In this document: positions 2,968 through 37,761 of the stretch, piece by piece
Numbering within the stretch: the stretch's first letter is position 1
Layout of the letters: each line of letters opens with the position of its first letter
Virus record (IMG/VR): IMGVR_UViG_2724679538_000004
Coordinates: 45,799 to 109,798 of that record
Strand: one strand, 5' to 3'
Length of the DNA stretch: 64,000 nucleotides
Source of the DNA: a virus
Taxonomy: Duplodnaviria; Heunggongvirae; Uroviricota; Caudoviricetes
The notes under the pieces: model-generated
What the model was told of the DNA's origin: nothing
Databases searched by the model: none
The model's input: the letters and a program-made list of their open reading frames with translations, nothing else
Program-made: the position numbers and the translations under genes

Positions 2968-5283
2968 ATGATAAGCATCGTAAAACGTAACGGCCAAACA
3001 GAGCCGTTATCCGAAGAAAAATACAACCGCGTCGTAATGTATGGCGTAGAAGGTATTCGTGGCGTAAGCGCATCAGCTGTAGCAATGGGAGCTGCGGCCA
3101 GTATTTTTGATGGGATGACCACCAGCCAGTTGCATGAGGCTTTGGTTAAATCTGCTGCGGACCTAATCTCTCCAGAGACACCAAACTACTCACAAGTAGC
3201 CGCACGTCTGAACATTTTCAAAATCCGCAAGCATGCATTCGGTCAATACGACTATCCGAATTTCTATCAACACATTGTTAAAAATGTCAACAAAGGCGTT
3301 TATGACGCAGATCTACTGAAATACTACTCGGTCGAAGAAATAGAGGAGCTTGGCATATACATTAAGCCTAAGCGTGATGAGCTTTTTGGTTATGCAGCTA
3401 CTGTTCAGCTACATAGCAAATACCTTGTCCAGAATCGTGTGACTGGAGAAATCTACGAGGGGCCACAACATATTTATATGCTGGTGGGCATGTGTCTGTT
3501 CCAGAATTGGGAAGACGACTGCGCTGGCAAAACTCGTATGGAGATGGTCAAAGGCTTCTATGACATCACCAGTACGTTCAAATTGTCCTTGCCGACCCCA
3601 ATCATGGCAGGCGTTCGTACTCCTACTCGCCAGTTCTCCAGTTGTGTGCTGATTGAGTCTGGGGATAGTCTGAAAGGGATTAGTGCAGCTTCAGCCGCAA
3701 TTATCGACTACGTTTCACGTCGTGCTGGAATTGGTATTGGTTTTGGCCGCATACGTGCGCTGGGAAGTGAGATCCGCAATGGTGAAGCCACCCATACCGG
3801 AGTTCTTCCATTCCTGAAGCATTTCCAGACTGCTGTTAAATCTTGCTCGCAAGGTGGTGTTCGTGGTGGAGCAGCAACAGCGTTTTACCCGATCTGGCAT
3901 CTTGAAGTTGAAAGTCTGCTGGTGGTGAAAAACAACCGAGGTATCGAGGAAAACCGTGTTCGCCATCTTGATTACGGAGTAATGATCAATCGCCTCATGT
4001 ATCGCCGACTTGTTCGAGGCGAGAACATTACTCTGTTCAGTCCGCATGATGTGCCTGATATGTACGAAGCCTTCTTTACAGATCAGGATCTGTTTGAAAA
4101 GCTGTACCATAAATACGAAGCCGATGATTCAATCCGCAAGAAGTCAGTACCTGCCGTTGAGCTGTTTTCATCTCTGATGCAGGAACGAGCGTCCACTGGC
4201 CGCATTTATATTGCGAACGTCGACCATATTAATGAGCATGGTGCTTTTATTCCTGCTCTTGCACCTGTTCGTCAGTCAAACCTGTGCATGGAGATCACCC
4301 TACCCACTCGTCCACTGACATTTACCGACGATCCGAACGGTGAGATCGCGCTGTGCACTTTATCAGCTTTTAACCTAGGAGCCATCCGTTCACTGGAGTC
4401 TCTTAAAGAGGTTGCGTTCTATGCCGTGGCTGCACTGGATTCGCTACTGGATTATCAAGACTATCCGATGGATGCAGCGAAAGTGCCTGCCAAAGCTCGT
4501 CGTAGCCTGGGGATTGGTGTAACCAACTTTGCTTATTACCTGGCAAAGAATGGCGTTCGTTATTCTGATACCGCTGGCAATAAACTGGTGCATGAAACGT
4601 TTGAAGCTATCCAGTATTACCTTCTTGATGCCAGTTGCCGACTTGCGGAAGCAAAAGGTGAATGTGACTGGTTTGAGCAGACCAGGTACGCAATTGGCCA
4701 GTTGCCGATCGACCACTACCGTTCTTCATTAGACGAAAGTGACGAAACTAACTTTGAATTAAAGATGCCGTGGGAAGAACTGCGTGAACGAATTGCAAAA
4801 CACGGCCTTCGCAATTCCACGCTGACGGCACAAATGCCATGTGAGACTTCCAGCCAGATCACTAACTCCACCAACGGCATTGAACCGCCTCGTGGCCCGG
4901 TGTCAGTGAAATCTTCTAAGGACGGCATCGTCAAGATGGTCGTGCCTGAGTTTGAAAAATTGAAGGAACAGTATGAATACCTGTGGGATATGCCGGACAA
5001 CCGCGGCTATCTGACAAAGGTGGCGATCATCCAGAAGTTCTTCGACCAGGCTATTTCAGCCAATACCAACTATGACCCTTCTCGCTTTGAAGGCGATAAA
5101 GTTCCAATGATGACGCTACTGTCAGATTTGCTTCTTGCCTACAAGATGGGAGTTAAAACGCTTTACTACCACAACACCAGAGATGGTGCAGGAAAGCGTG
5201 ATGACGACGAACCGCAGAATCCACTGGCGCAAGCTGTAGCCGTCGAGCCAGAAGATGAGTGCGACGGAGCCTGCAAAATCTGA
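2968..5283 (+). CDS. nrdA: ribonucleoside-diphosphate reductase alpha subunit (class Ia)
   Basis: 771 aa; N-terminal ATP-cone-like region; catalytic SNLCMEI motif; overall resemblance to E. coli NrdA. Confidence 0.9.
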   Translation: MISIVKRNGQTEPLSEEKYNRVVMYGVEGIRGVSASAVAMGAAASIFDGMTTSQLHEALVKSAADLISPETPNYSQVAARLNIFKIRKHAFGQYDYPNFYQHIVKNVNKGVYDADLLKYYSVEEIEELGIYIKPKRDELFGYAATVQLHSKYLVQNRVTGEIYEGPQHIYMLVGMCLFQNWEDDCAGKTRMEMVKGFYDITSTFKLSLPTPIMAGVRTPTRQFSSCVLIESGDSLKGISAASAAIIDYVSRRAGIGIGFGRIRALGSEIRNGEATHTGVLPFLKHFQTAVKSCSQGGVRGGAATAFYPIWHLEVESLLVVKNNRGIEENRVRHLDYGVMINRLMYRRLVRGENITLFSPHDVPDMYEAFFTDQDLFEKLYHKYEADDSIRKKSVPAVELFSSLMQERASTGRIYIANVDHINEHGAFIPALAPVRQSNLCMEITLPTRPLTFTDDPNGEIALCTLSAFNLGAIRSLESLKEVAFYAVAALDSLLDYQDYPMDAAKVPAKARRSLGIGVTNFAYYLAKNGVRYSDTAGNKLVHETFEAIQYYLLDASCRLAEAKGECDWFEQTRYAIGQLPIDHYRSSLDESDETNFELKMPWEELRERIAKHGLRNSTLTAQMPCETSSQITNSTNGIEPPRGPVSVKSSKDGIVKMVVPEFEKLKEQYEYLWDMPDNRGYLTKVAIIQKFFDQAISANTNYDPSRFEGDKVPMMTLLSDLLLAYKMGVKTLYYHNTRDGAGKRDDDEPQNPLAQAVAVEPEDECDGACKI

Positions 5284-15740: not shown

Positions 15741-15760
15741 AGAAAACAACTTGTTTTGAC
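15741..15760 (+). promoter_or_regulatory. promoter/operator family motif (AGAAAACAACTTGTTTTGAC)
   Basis: Near-palindrome upstream of the TerB-like gene. Confidence 0.4.
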
Positions 15761-23677: not shown

Positions 23678-24307
23678 ATGACCACCTTTACTAAAGAACA
23701 ACTAATTGATCATATTAATGATCGCAAAGATGTCCGTCAGAGAATGTTGGAAACTGCGACGATTTCTTCTGGATTCAGAGAATATCTTGAAAGAGAGCTT
23801 GCCACCGATCGGATTGCCCTGGCGTCGCTGGAAGCAAAACCAATAGGTGCATTCCACATTGCAGAACAGCAAGTTGAAGGCACAAGTGACTATCTCAAGG
23901 ATGGAGAATGGCCTATTGATAATGGAATTATTGAGGTCTACGCCGCTCCACCCGTTCCAGTAGTACCGGAAGAAAAACCAATGCCTAATCCTCTTAGCAT
24001 GTACGCGGTTGATGCTGTTGCCGCTATTGCAGAGGTGAGAGGATGGAACGCCTGCCGCGCAGCCATACTTCAGAGTCAAGATAGGGGCATTAAGGATGCA
24101 TGGATAAGCTGTAGTGAGCGAATGCCAGATGATGGTCAGCACGTAATTATTTTATGTGATGGCGCATTTGTTCTTTATGCGCAATATCGAGACGGTGAGT
24201 TTTTTGATGTCGTCCGTGATGGTGATGAATTTTTCGAAACGCAGAGCCGCAACGTCACACACTGGATGCAGCTACCAGAACCGCCGCAGGAGTCGAAGAG
24301 TGAATAA
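23678..24307 (+). CDS. DUF551-like domain protein
   Basis: C-terminal WISCSERMPDDGQHVIILCDG ... VTHWMQLPEPP resembles the DUF551 signature seen in enterobacterial prophages. Confidence 0.5.
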   Translation: MTTFTKEQLIDHINDRKDVRQRMLETATISSGFREYLERELATDRIALASLEAKPIGAFHIAEQQVEGTSDYLKDGEWPIDNGIIEVYAAPPVPVVPEEKPMPNPLSMYAVDAVAAIAEVRGWNACRAAILQSQDRGIKDAWISCSERMPDDGQHVIILCDGAFVLYAQYRDGEFFDVVRDGDEFFETQSRNVTHWMQLPEPPQESKSE

Positions 24308-24521
24308 AGCAGAGTTATTTCAGAAAATATCGGCTCTCGCGGCTGAATGCCACGCTATAGCATCTGAGCTTGATGTTGGCGACGAACGAACCGAGATGTT
24401 CGAAATATACAGTGTACTGCGCAATCTCTCTCGGCGTGGCTACGCCATTCAGGTAGGGCGAGTGACTAATCCACTACTCACATCATGTGATGAGGATGAC
24501 CCGGATGAGGATGACGAATGA
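24300..24521 (+). CDS. hypothetical small protein with acidic C-terminal tail
   Basis: GTG start preceded by AGGAG. Confidence 0.35.
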   Translation: MNKAELFQKISALAAECHAIASELDVGDERTEMFEIYSVLRNLSRRGYAIQVGRVTNPLLTSCDEDDPDEDDE

Positions 24522-24901
24522 TGAATAAATCAGTAGCCGGTGAGTTTCAGAAGGAAGTCGATAATACCACTGTTCTATTGGACGATATTTTAAGCATTCT
24601 CGCGCTGCTTGAGGCTGGAGAATGGTCAGAACATTGCACCAAAACAGAGCTAGGCGGTCGGCTTGAAAGAGAGATTACACGGCTGATTAGCGATGCCCAA
24701 AATTATTTGTCACCTGAGAACCTCCCTTGCGATGTAGTCCTTGTGCCAGGGATGAGGATACACGAAGGTGTCAGAACGAAAACATTATTGACCGCATTAC
24801 AGAGAAGAGCCGAATTAAAGTCGCGGGTTAAGTTGATGCCATCGAAAATGCTTGATGCCATCAAATTTACGCAATCGCAACATACTGAGAGAGATAAATG
24901 A
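24518..24901 (+). CDS. hypothetical protein
   Basis: 127-aa ORF, ATGA coupling. Confidence 0.4.
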   Translation: MMNKSVAGEFQKEVDNTTVLLDDILSILALLEAGEWSEHCTKTELGGRLEREITRLISDAQNYLSPENLPCDVVLVPGMRIHEGVRTKTLLTALQRRAELKSRVKLMPSKMLDAIKFTQSQHTERDK

Positions 24902-25527
24902 GCACGGTAGCGAAAGATCTCACAGAAGATATTCTCAATGAAATTATTGCTGGCGCGAATACCTCGCTTGAACAATATCTTGCGTTGGCGCTAAGAGCCG
25001 AACGTCGAGACAGAAAGCATTTTTATGAGCGATTACCAGGGAAGCGACCAGATAGATCAGATGAAGAAGGTAGCGATATAGACTACATGGAACCTTTAGA
25101 TGTTTATCAACTTGGTAAAGATGATGGCTGGAACGCTTATCACGATGCTGTGTTGAAGTTGGATGAAAAAGTGAAACCTCTTTCGCGACCAGTAGATCAC
25201 GGTTTTCGCGATAACTGCGAGTGCTCTAGTTGTCAGATCACGGCTCGTATTTGTTCCGAATTAACAGATAAGTCCACCCTAATCTACGAAGTTAATGTAG
25301 GCGGTAATACATGGGTCGAATGCACAAGAGCTGCATACGTAAGAGCAAAAGACAACGGCGAATTGACCAGAGTTGTTACCCATCACCCAAATAATGTGCT
25401 TAAAGATCACCAGATTCGAGAACTAGTGAATGAATTGCGGGATATTGCGGTTACGTATCACGGAACGCAGCAATTGCGGGAGAAGATTGCCAGAGCAGTG
25501 AACAACTCAATCCGTCCAGAAAAATAA
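24898..25527 (+). CDS. hypothetical protein
   Basis: 209-aa ORF, ATGA coupling. Confidence 0.45.
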   Translation: MSTVAKDLTEDILNEIIAGANTSLEQYLALALRAERRDRKHFYERLPGKRPDRSDEEGSDIDYMEPLDVYQLGKDDGWNAYHDAVLKLDEKVKPLSRPVDHGFRDNCECSSCQITARICSELTDKSTLIYEVNVGGNTWVECTRAAYVRAKDNGELTRVVTHHPNNVLKDHQIRELVNELRDIAVTYHGTQQLREKIARAVNNSIRPEK

Positions 25528-25544
25528 GTAATAGTACGATAAAG

Positions 25545-25569
25545 AGGCCCCATGCTCTTGATGGGGCCT
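25545..25569 (+). terminator. hairpin after gene end
   Basis: AGGCCCCATGCTCTTGATGGGGCCT. Confidence 0.4.
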
Positions 25570-25736
25570 GTAGCAACAAGCGTTATGGACGTTGGTTTAC
25601 GTACTCAATGATCGCTTTGATAATCGCGAACATCGGCGGCACGATTTTGAAAAGTAAGTTAAGCATAACAGGCCTCACTTAGTTTTATCGCGCCTAGCTG
25701 CAAATACCTTTGAGCTTGCCTTTGCAGTTGCAATAT

Positions 25737-25933
25737 CTGTAGTCGCCAGATACTTACGGCACGATTTCGAGTTAAGGTAAGGTTTGAGAGTCACCAAAAA
25801 CCTGGACTTAAATCTTCTTTGAGAACAATGATGTTTAGTAAATGGTCATTGTTACTAGGTATGACCACTCTACGTTTCTTGATGAATCCAGTACATTCGG
25901 TTAATCTTAACTCAGTCGCCAGATACTTATGGC
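25737..25933. repeat. two direct repeats AGTCGCCAGATACTTA(C/T)GGC about 174 bp apart in an 800-bp noncoding gap
   Basis: Read directly. Confidence 0.5.
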
Positions 25934-25970
25934 TCAGGAACAGAGACGCAAACTCCGTTTCCTTTTAAAA

Positions 25971-25998
25971 AGCCCGGTCTAGTCAACTGGGCTTTTTA
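25971..25998 (+). terminator. terminator-like hairpin
   Basis: AGCCCGGTCTAGTCAACTGGGCT plus T-run. Confidence 0.45.
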
Positions 25999-26292
25999 AT
26001 GTCTGCTTTTTAACCAAACATACCCTCAATACTGCAACATCAGTGTCTTGCGAATCAAGATAGTGTGTATAGATTTTTCATGCAAGTGCATAAGTCTGTG
26101 GATAACTCAGGAAGGAAAAAGTGACTTCCGCGCACTTTAGGCCGGACAAGGCCTTCGAAAAAGTCAATGGGAAGAAAAAATTTGTTAAAAATAACGTTTG
26201 TTTGAATTGTATATTTTATACCTGTCAATAGTTAGCATCTTATTAACATCTTTTTTAAGAGACAGAGTTTAAAAACATGTCGCTCCAACATA

Positions 26293-26312
26293 TACTGTAT
26301 GTACATACAGTA
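26293..26312. promoter_or_regulatory. LexA (SOS) box
   Basis: Perfect 20-bp palindrome TACTGTATGTACATACAGTA (CTGT-N8-ACAG) about 15 nt upstream of the UmuD'-like start. Confidence 0.8.
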
Positions 26313-26328
26313 TTAAGAGGCGAGTATT

Positions 26329-26718
26329 ATGGGATTCCCATCTCCTGCAGCGGATTATGTTGAAAGCCGTATTTCTCTTGATCGGCAGATAATTAGACAT
26401 CCTTCAGCGACCTACTTCCTGCGAGCGGCTGATAGCCATCACCGCGAAGGAATATTGCAGGGGGCGCTGCTGGTGGTCGATTCTTCACTAACTCCGGTTG
26501 ATGGTTCACTGCTTGTATGTGCTATTGATGGGGAATTTCGTGTAAAAAAATACCGTAAGTATCCGCGTCAGTACCTGGAGGATTTAAGAACTGGCAAGAA
26601 GGAAGCATTGCCAAAGGATGACGATGGATGCACTGGCAGTACTGCCGTGTTTGGTGTCATCACTCACATTATCAACGACGCAAGAAGTGGCGAATTTGAT
26701 GATTGTCCTGTGATGTAG
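26329..26718 (+). CDS. umuD: UmuD'-like protein (pre-processed form, HumD-like)
   Basis: Begins MGFPSPAADYVE, i.e. at the position of the UmuD Cys24/Gly25 self-cleavage site as I recall it; Ser/Lys dyad positions and GEFxVKK, VFGV(I/V)xH(I/V) conserved; AAGAGG RBS. Confidence 0.8.
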   Translation: MGFPSPAADYVESRISLDRQIIRHPSATYFLRAADSHHREGILQGALLVVDSSLTPVDGSLLVCAIDGEFRVKKYRKYPRQYLEDLRTGKKEALPKDDDGCTGSTAVFGVITHIINDARSGEFDDCPVM

Positions 26719-26723
26719 ATAGA

Positions 26724-26747
26724 AAGCCCTCGTTTGTATGAGGGCTT
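26724..26747. terminator. bidirectional terminator between convergent genes
   Basis: AAGCCCTCGTTTGTATGAGGGCTT. Confidence 0.5.
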
Positions 26748-26762
26748 CTAGGTAAACACAAA

Positions 26763-27506
26763 TCACTGCATGTTGCCGAATTTTTTGTTAAGGCTTTTTC
26801 GTATTGTCTCTATGGTTTTCTCCCTATCTGAATATAGTTCGCTAACTACATAGTCCATAATCTCAAAAGCACCTTCGATATCTTTGATCCGAACTTCATC
26901 AAACGTATGACTGCCTGCATTCCCCAAGAACTTTATCGCCAAAAGATTTTGAGCAAGTTTGCTGCCCTCTTCCGGGATTTTTTCGATACGATGGTGCAAT
27001 CGGATTGTCTTACCTTTATCATTTTGCGTAGGTATCCCCATAGAGGTAAGGATATTTTCTACAGCGATTCTGATTAGGTTTGCTGCGGCACCTTGCTGCA
27101 TTAAAAAAATGGAAAAAGCAGCTTTCAGGGGGCCACTTACTTCATCCGGGCAGTTCTCTGGAATTTGAAAAACATTCAAGGAAGGAACAAAGCAAAGAGG
27201 TTTGTACCATTGATAATATTCGTCTGCCATTTCCTCTGGTTGGTAATCTCTATCCCATCCTGCCTTTCCTACGCAGGCAACCGCTTCGCCACATTTTGCT
27301 CGTGAACATTTGGCCATACAGCTGAAATAGGACTCAGACATATCGTAATCAAACCAATCTTCATTTTGTGCTTTCCTGGTACCTAAAGACTCCTCTTCAA
27401 CAAAACTATCTTGCATGATTTCCAGAGTCTTTTGTCCGCAGACCGGACAAGGCCAGTCCACATGTTTATCGCTGTAAAATCGATGGGAAATTTTATGAAT
27501 AGCCAT
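26763..27506 (-). CDS. zinc-ribbon protein; C-terminal region resembles DUF4145-type module (tentative)
   Basis: N-terminal CPVCG ... C..C; C-terminal LAIKFLGNAGSHTFDE; opposite strand to all neighbours. Confidence 0.5.
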   Translation of the reverse strand: MAIHKISHRFYSDKHVDWPCPVCGQKTLEIMQDSFVEEESLGTRKAQNEDWFDYDMSESYFSCMAKCSRAKCGEAVACVGKAGWDRDYQPEEMADEYYQWYKPLCFVPSLNVFQIPENCPDEVSGPLKAAFSIFLMQQGAAANLIRIAVENILTSMGIPTQNDKGKTIRLHHRIEKIPEEGSKLAQNLLAIKFLGNAGSHTFDEVRIKDIEGAFEIMDYVVSELYSDREKTIETIRKSLNKKFGNMQ

Positions 27507-27651
27507 TTATTTCGCTCCATGCATATTGGCCGAAATGAGTTCAAACGATACCAATATGAATAATAGATGCGTTACTTTAAGACACTGTGGATTAAATACA
27601 AAGCATGGCTACCAACAGAAGGAACAAAAGATACTGGTTACAAATACCCGT

Positions 27652-27718
27652 AAATAAATTGTTTTCTACCTTTTCTTAATTGTGATAATAAACCACACAA
27701 GAAAACAAATTGTTTAGG
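27652..27718 (+). promoter_or_regulatory. sigma70-like promoter (TTGTTTTC, extended -10 TGTGATAAT) followed by operator CAAGAAAACAAATTGTTTAGG
   Basis: Read directly; same architecture at 21727-21785. Confidence 0.5.
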
Positions 27719-27728
27719 AGTGGCAAAA

Positions 27729-28028
27729 ATGCTGAACATTACCCAAGCCTACCAGGTGGCATTGATTAGTGCATCTCATACATCAGAGGAAGATGCTCGC
27801 CGATTCATGATCGCAAGCAATGAGCTGGATTGGGTTTCACAAATTGACGGCGGTTGTATTGTCCACGCCTGGTTACAGGATGATGTCTGGAAAGACAACT
27901 TGCGTCGATATGGTATATCCGAAGGCGCAATTGCTAACATTCAGAAAGTACTTGATGTAGGCTTTGACTCTGTACATTTCGATTGTGGCGCACCGGTCGT
28001 TGAAGGGCTTGAGTGCTGGAACTGGTAA
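27729..28028 (+). CDS. hypothetical protein
   Basis: ATG 27729 with AGGAG RBS. Confidence 0.45.
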   Translation: MLNITQAYQVALISASHTSEEDARRFMIASNELDWVSQIDGGCIVHAWLQDDVWKDNLRRYGISEGAIANIQKVLDVGFDSVHFDCGAPVVEGLECWNW

Positions 28029-28064
28029 TCCGGCAAACGTTCCATACTATGTAACGGAGAATTT

Positions 28065-28250
28065 ATGCTTAAAGAGGACTCATATCTACTAAAGGCGCTT
28101 GAAATGCGTGGCGTTGAACCTACAGTGAAAAACGCTCACGATATCTACCTTCAGTTTTCACCGGAGCTGAAACGGCTCATAAATCAATACGGGGTTAATG
28201 ACTCAAGTGTTAAAGCAATGATAGATGATGAATTAGACCATCTCATCTAA
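28065..28250 (+). CDS. hypothetical small protein
   Basis: 61-aa ORF with GGAG RBS. Confidence 0.35.
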   Translation: MLKEDSYLLKALEMRGVEPTVKNAHDIYLQFSPELKRLINQYGVNDSSVKAMIDDELDHLI

Positions 28251-28402
28251 TCGTTTCCTATGATAATGGTTTTCACTTTGAGATTGTTATTTTTCATAGC
28301 CAAAGCTGATGTTTGTGGAAGGTGGATTGATAAACGGATGCGTATTTAGGTTATACAAGTGAGAAAATTGATAATATATAAACGCGATTTTTATGTGATG
28401 GA

Positions 28403-28972
28403 ATGGATGTAATGGAAACCCAGAACCAACAAACAAAACCTCTGAATAACATTTATGCGTGGATTCTAGCGTTCATGCCTTTCTTCTTTGCAGTATCGCC
28501 GGAAGAGTATACCAATTACGCTATTATAATTGGGGGTGTAACTACCATCGGTTTGTTAGTAGCTGACAGAATGGCTCTATCGGAGTCTGGCTGTGAACCA
28601 CCTTCAATTCTATGGGGGGTATTCCTCCTGCCTGTCTATCTCTGGAAGCGCGCGACTATTACAAAAGGCAGCAGAGTGCCATTTATCATAATCGTTGCGT
28701 CGCTGGCTTGGGTTATCTTCATCGGCATCCCACACAAGGACGAGGTTGCTCTTGAAGAAGCAGCCTGCCCTCTCGTGACAACTATTCTGAAAGAGAATAA
28801 CGGTTCGACTGCACCAAAATGTATGAAGGTGACAATAGAGGACAAGGTGACGGATAAGTTCTATAGAGCAACGGCTACACTAGACAATGGTAATGACATT
28901 AACATTACTCTGGAACTTACCGGCGACAGGAACTTCTACGTCCGTGTTCCAAATGTTTATCTGAACAACTAA
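28403..28972 (+). CDS. membrane protein (multiple hydrophobic segments)
   Basis: Several predicted transmembrane stretches. Confidence 0.45.
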   Translation: MDVMETQNQQTKPLNNIYAWILAFMPFFFAVSPEEYTNYAIIIGGVTTIGLLVADRMALSESGCEPPSILWGVFLLPVYLWKRATITKGSRVPFIIIVASLAWVIFIGIPHKDEVALEEAACPLVTTILKENNGSTAPKCMKVTIEDKVTDKFYRATATLDNGNDINITLELTGDRNFYVRVPNVYLNN

Positions 28973-29100
28973 CGGTTGCAACTTATTGATAATGGCGGTC
29001 ACAATTTGATTCTTTTCTATAAGAATCCGTTGATCGCCACTACTCCCCTTCCATACCTGCAACCACATCCTTAAATATCAATTAGTTATAGTTGTTTATA

Positions 29101-29124
29101 CCAATAAGAAAACAACTAAATAAC
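29101..29124 (+). promoter_or_regulatory. promoter/operator family motif (variant)
   Basis: CCAATAAGAAAACAACTAAATAAC; no convincing gene downstream. Confidence 0.3.
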
Positions 29125-29313
29125 AGATCAACGAAATGTCAATGCTTTCGCCCGATTTGGTCTATAAAATTGACGTTTTCACACATCACTTCTTATACCC
29201 GCAATCCTACGCAGCAGACAGCGCCACAGCGTCCAATTTTCACCACAGATGACCCAACAACTACCAATAAAAACACACGCTCAAAATCGCTCCCGTTGCG
29301 TTACACAACCATA

Positions 29314-29356
29314 TAAACAACTTGTTTTCAGGCATAACAAAACAACTAAATAACAC
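29314..29356 (+). promoter_or_regulatory. promoter/operator family motifs (TAAACAACTTGTTTTCAGG and CATAACAAAACAACTAAATAACAC)
   Basis: Immediately upstream of the A/C-rich noncoding tract. Confidence 0.35.
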
Positions 29357-29900
29357 ATATGCCATTCCCCAAAACAACCAACCTCTTTATGGCAGGCTAC
29401 CGAAAAGACCCACCTCTTCTTCCCAGGCTACCGGACAACCAACCTAACTTTCACAGGCAATTCGAAACCTCCATACGCGCGATACCCACGACACGCCATT
29501 CCCCAAATAGCGAAGAACCACCGAAACCCCAACGAAGCTTGTAACCGCAAGGATTTCCTCAATCCCAAAAGACACGAAACAGAACATTCGAGGGAAACGC
29601 CATTACCCAATACACGAATAACTACAAAAGCCTTTCACGCACTCCATACAAGCAACTCAAACACAATAACGAAAGGAATCGCCCACCTGCCATTACTCCA
29701 TACACGGAGAAGAACAATCACCAAAACGTCGAGAACAACCCAGAGAAGAACCACCGCAAAACGAACGAAACCATATAAACCGACAGAGAGAACTACACAC
29801 CCAATTCACCAACAGAAATAGTCGCCGTATAGAACGTTCAGGGAGGAGTGAGTATTAACGCCTATAGAGAGCTTGAGACAGATAAAACACGAAGAAAACA
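29357..29900 (+). other. A/C-rich, G-poor noncoding tract with dispersed GCCATT(A/C)C(C/T)C...ACACG repeats (candidate untranslated transcript)
   Basis: No credible ORF on either strand; composition skew visible by eye; bounded by promoter-like motifs upstream and a hairpin/T-run downstream. Confidence 0.35.
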
Positions 29901-29946
29901 CAACATGTATAACGGAGAAGCCAGGTATGTATAAGTGGGGAGTGGA

Positions 29947-29968
29947 GGAGGGGTGTCGCCTCCTTTTT
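29947..29968 (+). terminator. terminator-like hairpin plus T-run
   Basis: GGAGG-GGTGTCG-CCTCC then TTTTT. Confidence 0.45.
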
Positions 29969-30032
29969 CGTATTTATTCAACTCCTGATTTTATCCCCCC
30001 GTAAAACCCCTACGGTCAGCCTTCGGTCCATA

Positions 30033-30173
30033 CAGGGAAAAGGTTGCATCCCGCTACAGAAACGGCTGGGTTGCCTTCGGGGAACGGCTGGAGGTTTTCA
30101 GGGAAACGGTCGAGTTGCCTGTGTGGGTTTCGGGAAAAGGCTCGATGCCGGTTCAGGAACGGTGGCGTACCGG
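30033..30173. repeat. about six tandem imperfect ~22-bp repeats of (C)AGGGAAA(A/C)GG type (iteron-like)
   Basis: CAGGGAAAAGG, CGGGGAACGG, CAGGGAAACGG, CGGGAAAAGG, CAGGAACGG read in series. Confidence 0.55.
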
Positions 30174-30475
30174 TATAGCGAGAGGGAGAGTTGCGGCTAC
30201 CCACCTGTAATGTGCGGGAAGAAGGGAGACTCTCACGTATAGGCGAACCTACTTCCCGCTGGATTCCCTCTGAATGCCCAGCTACAGCGTAATTGTGCCA
30301 GACAGTCCGCGGGTCACAATCGATTTCAGTAGGTTTTCGGGGAGAGGATTATTCTGCCCACCAGCTCCCTGCGGCCAGTAAATCAGAATAATGTAAAAAG
30401 TGCCCACGGTACTGAACCTGAAAAGTCACTACTAAAACTGCATTTACCGGAATAAAACTCTTTTTCACCTATGTG

Positions 30476-30518
30476 TTATTGCGATAATAACACCAACGAG
30501 AAAACAAGTTGTTTACGG
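30476..30518 (+). promoter_or_regulatory. promoter (-10-like GCGATAAT) plus operator CGAGAAAACAAGTTGTTTACGG
   Basis: Read directly. Confidence 0.45.
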
Positions 30519-30525
30519 AGTGGTA

Positions 30526-32503: not shown

Positions 32504-32776
32504 TTATATCATTTTTGCGAGCTTATTCATTTTGGTGAAGTCAATTGGCAATTCGGCCAAAGGTATCAAATAGTCTTTTTGTGCCCAGAAGTTTGGAGAT
32601 CTGCCCACTACATACGAAAGCCGATAAGCGTCTTCATCGGTAATCGGCTTTCTTTGTTCTAGTATAGCTTCAGCATAGTCGATACTAACCGCCATGCTGC
32701 GAGCCAATAATTCAACCCCAATACCGTAATCGTCATAAATGGCATCAAGAAATTTTTTCACATCAAGTTGGGACAT
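32504..32776 (-). CDS. XRE-type helix-turn-helix DNA-binding protein (putative regulator)
   Basis: LARSMAVSIDYAEAILEQRKP resembles an HTH motif; lone minus-strand gene among plus-strand cassettes. Confidence 0.45.
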   Translation of the reverse strand: MSQLDVKKFLDAIYDDYGIGVELLARSMAVSIDYAEAILEQRKPITDEDAYRLSYVVGRSPNFWAQKDYLIPLAELPIDFTKMNKLAKMI

Positions 32777-32861
32777 ATGATTATCTCCTCAAATAAGCCA
32801 AGTTTTTATTATATAACGATATTTTTCGATTGTGGGTAATATGATTACACCCGCAGGCTAA

Positions 32862-32945
32862 AAACACCAACCTCTTACCTCCAGGCTACCGATTAACCCA
32901 CCTGTTCCCGTCCGGCTACCGCAACTTTCCACTTTGACGCCTTAT
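32862..32945. repeat. paralog of the 29375-29465 element (contains two CAGGCTACCG-type direct repeats)
   Basis: Aligns by eye with 29375-29465. Confidence 0.5.
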
Positions 32946-32953
32946 TCGTACAA

Positions 32954-32992
32954 CGATAATTAACACCAACAAGAAAACAATTTGTTATTTAC
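32954..32992 (+). promoter_or_regulatory. promoter (-10-like CGATAAT) plus operator CAAGAAAACAATTTGTTATTTACG
   Basis: Read directly. Confidence 0.45.
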
Positions 32993-33007: not shown

Positions 33008-33490
33008 ATGAATTTTATCGTTACTGTAAACGCACCCGCACATGGCAATATCGCTGTAACGTTCTCTGACATTGAAAAACGAGTACTTGGTGCATGGCGC
33101 GACAATGAGACGGTAGAACTGTCAGCACAAGAAAAATGCATTATTGCACGCGACATCATTGGTAATCGTCGTTACTCGCGGGTATTTGAGAAAGCGTATG
33201 TGGTAAATTCTGGATTCGGAACGTTCGTCTTTCCGGTGCGCTCCGGGCGATTCTGCCAGTCCAAGCTGATTGAGTTCGCTACGCAGATTTCTGTCTGGAT
33301 TAAAACTCAATCGTCGTTCAAATTTTCCGACGATGAAGCAGTATCGCAGGGGATGCGGATCGCCAACAATGCGATAAAATGCAAAAACATTACGTATGCC
33401 GCTGGCGTTGACACATGGAAACTGTTTTGCGCTAACTTTATGCTGAATGTATACGCAAGCAACCGCATCCACATCCTTGATGGCGTGTAA
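33008..33490 (+). CDS. hypothetical protein
   Basis: 160-aa ORF with AAGGAA RBS. Confidence 0.45.
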   Translation: MNFIVTVNAPAHGNIAVTFSDIEKRVLGAWRDNETVELSAQEKCIIARDIIGNRRYSRVFEKAYVVNSGFGTFVFPVRSGRFCQSKLIEFATQISVWIKTQSSFKFSDDEAVSQGMRIANNAIKCKNITYAAGVDTWKLFCANFMLNVYASNRIHILDGV

Positions 33491-33539: not shown

Positions 33540-33657
33540 CAGGGAAATTTTCAGAAACGGCGAGGAACGCATTCATGAACCGACGGGAAACGGCCAAGAT
33601 TTTTTCGGGAAACGGCTGCATTCGCCTTTATGTAGAAAAACATCGGGAAGCTGGTGG
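33540..33657. repeat. second array of GGGAAACGG-type repeats, flanked by CCACCAGCT / AGCTGGTGG inverted repeat
   Basis: CAGGGAAA, CGACGGGAAACGGCC, CGGGAAACGGCTG, CGGGAAGCTGG read in series. Confidence 0.5.
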
Positions 33658-35629: not shown

Positions 35630-36226
35630 TCAAAAAGGCAAAATTCGTTCAACCCAATCGAACAAAACAACTATTTTTCTACCGTTCTCGACACGTAGTG
35701 TAACCTGACAAGCATCTGCGCCTGCTGACACCCCCTCAATTTCACGGCCATCCGCCATGTACACCCTTATAGATTTGTTTGCTTTATGGGCCTGGTTGCA
35801 AATTGCAAAAAAATCACGGCGTGATGGCCGATTGTCAACATAATCAGGGTGAACTGTTAATCGACCTTTGAAATCGTGAGCGATACCGTCAACCACACCT
35901 GATTCAATTGTACTAATGCGTTCAAGTGGAAGCCTTATACGATTTTCTTTGTCAAAAGGGGCTGGGCAAAGATCAACTTTGTTACGAGATGGCATGAGAC
36001 CATAAACGTACATGCAAAACGCCTGGCCATCTTCGAGAGTGGCCCTTACAGGAATTTGTTCTCTGCGCCAGAACATCAGGAGGTTTTCAATATTCTTATA
36101 ATCTCGCGGCCAGACCTCCGCTGGCACGCCGTAGGTGATGTCTTTAGTCGTCATGTCATTATAAAGTTGTTGGCAATATATCCATTGTACCATCCCAGGT
36201 TGTGAAGACCCGATATGTTTTAGCAT
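35630..36226 (-). CDS. hypothetical protein (start uncertain because it overlaps the upstream gene)
   Basis: 198-aa ORF. Confidence 0.45.
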   Translation of the reverse strand: MLKHIGSSQPGMVQWIYCQQLYNDMTTKDITYGVPAEVWPRDYKNIENLLMFWRREQIPVRATLEDGQAFCMYVYGLMPSRNKVDLCPAPFDKENRIRLPLERISTIESGVVDGIAHDFKGRLTVHPDYVDNRPSRRDFFAICNQAHKANKSIRVYMADGREIEGVSAGADACQVTLRVENGRKIVVLFDWVERILPF

Positions 36227-37464: not shown

Positions 37465-37761
37465 TTACGGTAGCCTGCTAAGGATTTCGTCCAGATCTTC
37501 CTTAGTCAAATTTGAGTTTTCATAAATCTGCATAATCCTTTCGCGAGCTTTAGCAGAAGCTTTTGCAGTTGCGCCCAAAGAAGAAGCAATTTTGTCAAAC
37601 TCGGCCATCGGCATCTTTTCAAGTACAACATTGATGATTTCAGACTTTGACAGTTTTAGGTTTTTGTCTTTCAGTTTGGCTTTAAATTTTGTTAGTTTGT
37701 TGTTCGCCTGTTCAGTTAATGCGACCTGACAATACGTTGTTTTTTTCTCGCTCATAGTCAA
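37465..37761 (-). CDS. small DNA-binding-like protein (possible ribbon-helix-helix)
   Basis: N-terminal strand-then-helix pattern (TTYCQVALTEQANNKL); ATGA-coupled to the helicase gene. Confidence 0.35.
   Translation of the reverse strand: MTMSEKKTTYCQVALTEQANNKLTKFKAKLKDKNLKLSKSEIINVVLEKMPMAEFDKIASSLGATAKASAKARERIMQIYENSNLTKEDLDEILSRLP

Follow-up and report, generated by a model that had tools for sequence, protein, structure and literature searches.

Repeated recognition sites are known from several systems of plasmids and phages. The iterons of P1 and RepFIB (bound by RepA), of F (RepE) and of lambda (O) are tandem direct repeats of 17-22 bp set in helical phase. The centromere arrays sopC of F and parC of R1 and pSK41 are direct repeats that are bound cooperatively, the sopC sites of the phage-plasmid N15 are dispersed and lie near promoters, and the CII site arrays of lambda and 186 consist of a few direct-repeat sites just upstream of a promoter. 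At the RNA level, ToxI is a tandem repeat directly upstream of a protein gene, the sponge RNAs of the CsrB/CsrA and CrcZ/Hfq-Crc pairs carry their motif in a long non-coding stretch, and nut sites combine a boxA of consensus (C/T)GCTCTT(T)A with a boxB hairpin that follows it.

SSU5-like phage-plasmids, among them pHCM2 of S. Typhi and pMT1 of Y. pestis, are common in clinical Enterobacteriaceae, where they carry resistance and defence cargo. To our knowledge, almost nothing is known about their regulation. Here we describe two arrays of a bipartite repeat in a member of this family, represented by a stretch of 64 kb that was analysed as a whole and is referred to as the window. It is most similar to Escherichia phage Cyrano and to E. 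coli plasmids (89-93% identity), and its genes include those for ribonucleotide reductase, thymidylate synthase, a helicase, ParB-like proteins, terminase, portal, capsid and tail; no gene for a replication initiator or Rep protein was found in the 64-kb window. The array motif was not found in published papers, and no description of the element was found in the searchable literature. Its conservation marks it as a real cis-element that is under selection and occurs, duplicated, at two syntenic positions in a large phage-plasmid family.

A bipartite unit in two tandem arrays

A first-pass annotation of the window had placed a duplicated intergenic element at 29375-29465 and 32862-32945, and both stretches, here called site A and site B, lie where it had located them. 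Its description of the two as clearly homologous is borne out by pairwise comparison: the local alignment of A (29360-29480) with B (32850-32970) scores 50, against a mean of 16.8 and a maximum of 30 for 1000 dinucleotide-preserving shuffles, none of which (0/1000) reached 50. The anatomy that it had proposed, two 10-mer repeats per site, has to be revised. The repeat is instead a unit of 26 nt, composed of box1 (ACCNACCTCTT), a variable spacer of 5 nt and box2 (C[AC]GGCTACCG, typically CAGGCTACCG), and both sites are tandem head-to-tail arrays of this unit, with about three units per site and a period of 29-31 bp. The spacing of three helical turns claimed for the 10-mers is found again between units, at 30-31 bp.

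At site A, on the + strand, unit 1 (29377-29402) reads ACCAACCTCTT-TATGG-CAGGCTACCG and unit 2 (29408-29433), which starts 31 bp after it, reads ACCCACCTCTT-CTTCC-CAGGCTACCG. The third unit (29438-29463), 30 bp after the second, is degenerate in the window (ACCAACCTA-ACTTTCA-CAGGCAATTC) but complete in Cronobacter and in a number of IMG/VR contigs. Site B, also on the + strand, opens with the remnant of an upstream unit, a box2-like CAGGCTAAAA at 32854-32863 that is preceded by a box1 in one IMG/VR relative (L066). It is followed by unit 1 (32866-32891; ACCAACCTCTT-ACCTC-CAGGCTACCG), the best-conserved unit of the site, and, 30 bp further on, by unit 2 (32896-32921; ACCCACCTGTT-CCCGT-CCGGCTACCG), which is more degenerate and carries an insertion of 7 bp in box2 in SSU5, Klebsiella, Enterobacter and Cronobacter.

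The boxes are concentrated in these two places. Allowing at most one mismatch, CAGGCTACCG occurs eight times in the window against 1.9 expected, a count reached by none of 100 shuffles, and five of the eight matches fall inside sites A and B; likewise, ACCMACCT occurs eight times against 2.2 expected, with no shuffle reaching that number and again five of the eight inside the two sites. A putative third copy at 37468-37477 on the - strand was discarded as a chance match, since it falls in the final codons of a gene for a 98-aa protein and has no counterpart in Cyrano or in the relative p88COLEC-2. The arrays went undetected by Tandem Repeats Finder, because the variable spacers drop the identity between whole units below its threshold. 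The bipartite unit, the number of units per site, the A+C-rich region around site A and the membership in a phage-plasmid family had all been missed in the first reading.

The two boxes of a unit lie 1.5 helical turns apart, with neither dyad symmetry nor an internal inverted repeat, and the orientation of the arrays is always that of the flanking genes. As RNA, the units are predicted to fold poorly, with minimum free energies weaker than those of 192/200 and 197/200 shuffles (z of +1.6 and +2.1). A search for an antisense partner of the units, in the rest of the window and in the rest of the genome of one relative, returned short SD-like matches only.

Conservation in relatives and a second Klebsiella lineage

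The region around site A is matched by 835 PLSDB plasmids from Klebsiella, Escherichia, Enterobacter, Salmonella, Citrobacter, Cronobacter and others. A set of relatives was chosen blindly with respect to the motif, by BLAST similarity to a region of 941 bp, and comprised SSU5 together with plasmids of Klebsiella, Enterobacter and Cronobacter. In all of them, both boxes are present at sites A and B. Variation is seen at position 4 of box1, in the 5-nt spacer and in the flanks, and the non-coding DNA around the units is ~69% identical, with many indels. The check by conservation that had been proposed for the element shows boxes retained and spacers and flanks diverged.

A wider pattern scan of IMG/VR with ACCNACCTC-N7-CAGGCTACCG gave 91 loci, nearly all of them on contigs of ~100 kb. 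Relaxed matching across the loci examined yielded 145 arrays. Setting aside a few weak matches to the relaxed pattern within a coding region, all of them are either of type A, which follows GCCATTNCCC, or of type B, which follows GCAGGCTAAAAAC. Altogether, every array found among about nine enterobacterial genera occupies one of the two syntenic positions; of these genera, Kluyvera, Buttiauxella and Yersinia (pMT1 of Yersinia pestis) come from a set of species-representative genomes, whose other matches are single and at roughly the chance rate. In one complete relative plasmid, no unit was found elsewhere on either strand. The earlier suggestion of a module copied within the genome agrees with this distribution, with the qualification that the duplication is old, as both copies occupy the same two syntenic positions in many genera.

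The geometry of the unit is nearly invariant: 243 of 246 cases have the spacing box1-N7-box2, all other spacings together accounting for three. Between units, the linker varies from 4 to 12 nt and the spacing from 29 to 32 bp, with a mode of 31 across loci. From the fixed distance between the boxes we infer that one unit corresponds to one binding site, and the units follow each other roughly in helical phase. Box positions carry ~1.9 bits of information against 0.6-1.0 in the flanks, figures that are inflated, since only loci with an exact unit had entered the comparison and no gaps were allowed in the flanks. On these sequence comparisons, the boxes and their spacing within the unit are under purifying selection, and the pattern is the footprint of a selected recognition site.

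A second lineage, represented by pCAV1099-111 of K. oxytoca, by K. pneumoniae plasmids (pfekpn2511-2) and by a contig (L099) holding the most divergent homologue (51% identity) of the gene downstream of site B, has its arrays in the same two places, with box sequences that have drifted. Its site A consists of three to four units of the form ACACCACTC-N9-CAGGCA with a period of 28-30 bp, and its site B combines ACACCACTC...CGGCTNC with AGGCTAA, at a period of 38 bp. The distance from the start of box1 to the start of box2 is 16 nt at site A, as in the canonical lineage, and 17 nt at site B. Furthermore, box1 has been altered in parallel at both sites. Each of the two lineages occurs in K. pneumoniae and, with two motifs in one host species, a lineage-specific binder encoded by the element becomes more likely than a host factor; the putative binder is therefore probably a product of the phage-plasmid itself. 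Among conserved neighbours, the most diverged between the lineages are a FljA-like protein (34% identity) and the 98-aa protein (37465-37761; 32%); the helicase, ParB-like and ABC proteins are 64-87% identical.

These comparisons bear directly on the idea that the similarity of A and B is a neutral leftover of the old duplication, devoid of function. The third unit of site A and the second unit of site B are indeed decaying in some lineages, as such an account would have it. Nevertheless, the boxes and the spacing inside the unit have been kept in about nine genera, while the non-coding DNA next to them is ~69% identical, and the geometry persists even in a lineage with proteins at only 32-51% identity to those of the window (64-87% for the helicase, ParB-like and ABC proteins), so that we regard this explanation as very improbable.

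The two cassettes and the putative binder

Directly downstream of the site B array lies a promoter/operator module of the "early promoter" family (32934-32987, + strand), whose TTGACG (32934-32939) begins 13 bp after the end of the site and is followed by GATAAT (32955-32960) and by the operator AAACAATTTGTTA (32975-32987). Modules of this type, GCCTTAT-N9-GATAAT and, ~14 nt further, AAACAAnTTGTTT, precede at least six other small genes in the window; in those, a second operator overlaps the -35, a place that is occupied by the units at site B. The palindromic operator AAACAAnTTGTTT itself is found 19 times in the window against 6.9 expected, at least 14 of the copies being intergenic.

The gene headed by site B (33008-33490, + strand; phrog_1641) encodes a basic, conserved protein of 160 aa, restricted to SSU5-like elements, for which no Pfam match and no PDB fold match was found; it is a candidate that could act as an autoregulated binder. 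On the other side of the array, the window and SSU5 carry a reverse-oriented HigA-like gene of 90 aa (32504-32776) immediately to the left, and most other relatives carry a co-directional gene that ends in a hairpin devoid of a T run.

Site A lies in a non-coding stretch of ~1.5 kb (~29000-30520) that has no credible ORF and that was left blank by PGAP in hundreds of plasmids. Within it, a conserved A+C-rich region of ~750 nt (29096-29830, + strand) contains the array and shows a GC skew of about -0.4 to -0.5 and an AT skew of +0.3 to +0.6, together with four + strand copies of GCCATTNCCC (at 29361, 29495, 29599 and 29689). An operator pair upstream of the array (29315-29352), made of the palindrome AAACAACTTGTTT and the half-site AAAACAAC, reproduces the dispersed operator of the element. 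No -35/-10 pair can be recognised between these two operators, and no conserved promoter was found downstream of site A among the relatives compared. In the Escherichia lineage, a terminator-like hairpin with a T run (29942-29971, + strand) closes the A+C-rich region; a scan did not find it in SSU5 or in the second lineage. The early promoter that had been described next to each array is thus present at site B, whereas site A has an operator pair in its stead. The adjoining GGGAAACGG repeats hold only loosely: the window has just two clusters of this type, at 30035-30162 and 33540-33615 on the + strand, each ~0.6 kb downstream of a cassette.

Several other readings of the A+C-rich region were discarded. 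The small ORFs over site A (29359-29544; CYRAN_103 in Cyrano) have neither a conserved start codon nor a conserved frame and are blank in PGAP annotation. The region is not a decayed paralog of the 160-aa gene (tblastn E > 3), and no - strand promoter for a G-rich R-loop transcript was seen by eye or by scan. Rfam covariance models at their gathering score gave 0 matches over the whole window, and no tRNAs were found.

Expression data exist for E. coli LF82 lysogens carrying Cyrano, in which the lysogenic state alone was sampled (PMC9928086). There, CYRAN_103, the ORF that spans site A and the beginning of the A+C-rich region, has a log2(5+FPKM) of 2.32 in LB, equivalent to zero reads, and at most 4.3 in the other conditions (PMC9928086 S1 Table). 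In the same lysogens, the gene upstream of it scores 5.6-9.2 and the 160-aa gene 4.0-7.7, the latter being weak expression (PMC9928086). Given this near absence of reads over site A, a role of its RNA during lysogeny is unlikely.

Taken together, a protein-binding module, as originally suggested, would be the most economical reading of the arrays, with recognition taking place either on double-stranded DNA or on single-stranded RNA. We tentatively favour the first option, in which the arrays would serve as a cooperative binding platform for a DNA-binding regulator encoded by the element and dedicated to the gene-specific control of two cassettes. According to this model, tandem arrays of rigid bipartite 26-bp sites would be bound cooperatively by a sequence-specific factor of the phage-plasmid. 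The dispersed palindromic operator AAACAAnTTGTTT would already provide a global layer of control, and the arrays would add a second, gene-specific one at just two cassettes, the A+C-rich region (site A) and the phrog_1641 gene (site B). Protein binding, double-stranded DNA as the target and the transcriptional modulation of both cassettes would be the three components of such a system.

Recognition on double-stranded DNA is favoured by units that follow each other at about three helical turns in the canonical lineage, by the promoter module downstream of site B and the reverse gene on its other side in this window, and by the silence of site A in lysogens. The units are also conserved, sequence-specific sites in non-coding DNA, as expected of a promoter array. 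Against a DNA-bound array stand the promoter geometry, which is not fixed, and site A, which has no conserved promoter downstream. Neither the distance nor the helical face to the core promoter is constant: at site B, the distance from unit 2 to the -35 is 6-7 bp longer in relatives outside Escherichia, and in the second lineage, where the period of this site is 38 bp, a whole operator separates its units from the promoter. In addition, the units of site A lie ~115 nt upstream of the operator pair in the second lineage and downstream of it in the canonical one. Boxes 1.5 turns apart and devoid of dyad symmetry would moreover be unusual for a simple DNA-binding dimer. In turn, constant orientation, near-continuous conservation over 26 nt and weak RNA folding would suit recognition of a single strand.

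A candidate for such recognition is encoded nearby. Proteins of the FljA family block the translation of fliC mRNA (PMC2652032), and the - strand gene at 35630-36154 encodes a FljA-like protein that matches PF03614 (repressor of phase-1 flagellin) with an E of 2.5e-83 and is composed of two tandem Sm/Hfq-like domains. The units could accordingly be read as modules recognised by this protein in single-stranded RNA (or single-stranded DNA), site B being reached by early transcripts that read through towards the 160-aa gene, and site A, within the unstructured A+C-rich RNA, acting as a second target or decoy. We consider this possible, with the chances rather against it. The two Sm/Hfq-like domains could match the two boxes of each unit, the gene is found in every relative examined, the second lineage included, and its product is among the most diverged of the conserved neighbours (34% identity between the lineages). 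The units themselves, on a constant strand, with no dyad symmetry, with a rigid 16-nt spacing of their subsites and less structured than shuffled sequences, are of the kind that such a protein might read, and the co-directional gene upstream of site B in most relatives, whose terminal hairpin has no T run, would be compatible with read-through.

However, the promoter module of the 160-aa gene starts downstream of site B, which adjoins a reverse gene in the window and in SSU5; site A gave zero reads in LF82 lysogens grown in LB; and the + strand terminator that closes the A+C-rich region has been conserved neither in SSU5 nor in the second lineage. Moreover, neither the units nor the A+C-rich region have above-chance similarity to the leader of E. 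coli fliC, the counterpart of the known target of FljA in Salmonella, and the Hfq/Crc-type motif AANAANAA is not enriched in the region, where it has three matches. One A+C-rich motif, ACCCAATAC, that resembled the 5' leader of E. coli fliC was dropped, as 276/500 shuffles score as well. The most specific version of the RNA account, in which each Sm domain reads one box within a post-transcriptional circuit made of a leader array and an A+C-rich RNA as co-target or decoy, appears unlikely.

The long non-coding stretch around site A also raises the idea that the arrays belong to a replication, partition or architectural complex, for instance as iterons of a lytic origin within 29000-30520. About 1.5 kb lacking a credible ORF and conserved in 835 plasmids would be a plausible setting for an origin. 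The region gathers three repeat families, in which the four + strand copies of GCCATTNCCC face GCCGTTTCCC on the - strand (that is, GGGAAACGG read on the other strand). The units are rich in information and phased, as iterons are, the arrays are not tied to a fixed place with respect to promoters, and the region is silent in the lysogen. The units are tandem, direct and spaced 29-31 bp, but they are 26 bp long and bipartite. Against an origin, the two arrays lie 3.5 kb apart with the second one inside an ordinary row of genes, there is neither an AT-rich unwinding element (the local GC content is 43-51%) nor a switch of cumulative skew there, and no initiator or partition gene adjoins them. 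We therefore hold an origin or partition role to be quite unlikely, and retain the binding platform for an element-encoded DNA-binding regulator as the preferred reading.

Whichever molecule reads them, the arrays rank, like the palindromic operator, the A+C-rich region and the GGGAAACGG arrays, among the non-coding features that the family has conserved best. They also constitute experimental handles, offering a 90-bp probe for the regulator, lineage-specific variants and defined sites for deletion. Should the FljA-like Sm protein be the binder, a family of flagellar phase-variation regulators would be linked to the control of phage-plasmid genes, and, if the RNA reading were true, this would be the first defined recognition code of the FljA family outside flagellar phase variation.

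The arrays among known repeat systems

A number of known systems could be set aside. The RepA iterons of the plasmid are elsewhere: in p88COLEC-2, repA lies ~34-35 kb from site A around the circle and has its own TATCCACTGTAGTGAG-type iterons, unrelated to the units. As to a par centromere, the region upstream of the ParA-like ATPase of a relative has the palindromic operator and no units. Repeats of the ToxI type were rejected, since the gene is preceded by a promoter/operator module and no terminator, the RNA is unstructured and the 160-aa protein lacks a ToxN-like fold. A nut site was excluded as well: box1 reads CCTCTT, in which the conserved G of boxA is missing, and no hairpin is predicted. 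A CrcZ-like sponge built on AANAANAA was dismissed on the same three matches in the region.

Some of these systems nevertheless share real features with the arrays. With ToxI/ToxN they have in common a mobile element in which a gene of ~160-170 aa is immediately preceded by a tandem repeat of ~31-36 nt. As in the CsrB/CsrA and CrcZ/Hfq-Crc pairs, the motif is found both in extended non-coding sequence and in front of a protein-coding gene, with the gene of an Sm-like RNA-binding protein nearby. Unlike the sponge RNAs, the arrays have no evident transcript in lysogens, place their motif off the ribosome-binding site and contain only three copies of it.

At the DNA level, the resemblance to the iterons bound by RepA of P1 and RepFIB, by RepE of F and by lambda O lies in sites that are tandem, in the same orientation, rich in information and roughly in helical phase. 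It extends to lineage specificity, as iterons co-evolve with a binder encoded by the element, which is what we propose for the arrays. The differences are a unit of 26 bp, a period of ~31 bp, a bipartite structure and the lack of an adjoining initiator gene or AT-rich element. With the centromeres sopC of F and parC of R1 and pSK41, the arrays have direct repeats in common, and cooperative binding, established there, would be the proposal here; the dispersed sopC sites of N15 add the precedent of sites located near promoters in a phage-plasmid. In contrast to partition centromeres, the arrays have neither an adjoining par operon nor an internal inverted repeat.

The CII site arrays of lambda and 186 resemble them in having few sites in direct repeat, located just upstream of a promoter (as at site B) and superimposed on a global repressor system. 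They differ in that the distance of our arrays to the promoter is not conserved, that no conserved promoter follows site A and that the unit is much longer than half-sites of the CII type. Each of these systems thus shares part of its design with the two sites, and the arrays of the SSU5-like phage-plasmids join the familiar class of repeated recognition-site arrays.

The A+C-rich non-coding stretch and its left flank

Site A, the first of the two arrays of tandem bipartite 26-bp units, lies within an extremely A+C-rich stretch of about 750 nt (29096-29830, + strand) with a GC skew of about -0.4 to -0.5. It is enclosed in some 1.5 kb devoid of any credible ORF, non-coding DNA running on to about 30520. 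The stretch is kept in 835 PLSDB plasmids, in which the PGAP annotation assigns nothing to it, and RNA-seq of LF82, an E. coli lysogen carrying the related element Cyrano, gives practically zero reads over it (PMC9928086). Being C-rich, G-poor and unstructured, it would suit a role as a Rho-loading region; however, the motifs internal to the stretch are likewise conserved.

When the window is compared with three loci of relatives (L003, L006 and L002), homology between genera begins abruptly at about 29096. Directly to the left, from about 24000 to 29000, the same comparison reveals a variable cargo island, whose contents differ by relative and include type I restriction-modification systems, DUF262/GmrSD, MetRS, IS1 and UmuD-like genes.

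Repeats and boundaries around the unit arrays

Clusters of GGGAAACGG(C) repeats occur in only two places in the window (30035-30162 and 33540-33615), in either case some 0.6 kb downstream of one of the unit arrays. In the second Klebsiella lineage, where they lie at 3350-3500 and 8570-8620 of contig L099, they are better conserved than the units themselves. Read on the - strand, the repeat is GCCGTTTCCC, which matches at 8/10 positions the sequence GCCATTNCCC, present in four + strand copies in the A+C-rich region; the two sets of repeats thus face each other.

At site B, a gene for a HigA-like HTH protein of 90 aa (32504-32776, - strand) is inserted between an upstream hairpin and the array. 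The window and SSU5 share this insertion, which Cyrano and the relatives from Klebsiella, Enterobacter and Cronobacter lack; this identifies the left border of the array as a module boundary. The Chi sequence GCTGGTGG is found at 16 sites in the window, against 1.3 expected, among them 30358, 32485 and 33527 on the - strand, and in non-Escherichia relatives its complement, CCACCAGC, falls within unit 2 of site B, which is degenerate there.

Anomalies in individual assemblies

In a K. pneumoniae assembly (L100, GCA_900608315.1; 4470-4520 and 7870-7880), the units lack an 'AG' exactly at CCAGG, i.e., at Dcm sites; the loss probably stems from faulty basecalling where the DNA is methylated, not from biology. 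A 604-bp contig (L117) filed under the actinobacterium Catenulispora yoronensis bears two perfect units in a site A of the Klebsiella type and is almost certainly contamination of that assembly. Two further loci, L111 and L115, belong to one 108-kb contig of Yersinia pestis NCTC5923 (pMT1-like) and show the same surroundings of site B, which might reflect either a duplication within the plasmid or an overlap between the two loci. Site A was not seen in the retrieved pieces of this contig.

A candidate regulator and a probable dispersed operator

A gene conserved in SSU5-like phage-plasmids (35630-36154, - strand) encodes an FljA-family protein (PF03614), modelled as two tandem Sm/Hfq-like domains. 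Its target might be the flagellin of the host, as a repressor, or transcripts of the element itself.

The window holds 19 copies of the palindrome AAACAAnTTGTTT, against 6.9 expected, mostly in intergenic positions (for example at 15744, 17299, 27652, 27703, 29315, 30502, 31408, 32160, 32975 and 42946). The palindrome belongs to a recurrent promoter module, GCCTTAT-N9-(TG)nGATAAT...operator, that precedes many small genes, and in the relative L101 it also stands upstream of a ParA-like ATPase gene (about 33850). AAACAAnTTGTTT looks like a dispersed operator for a putative master repressor of the element, and in this dispersal of operator sites it would resemble the C1 operators of P1.
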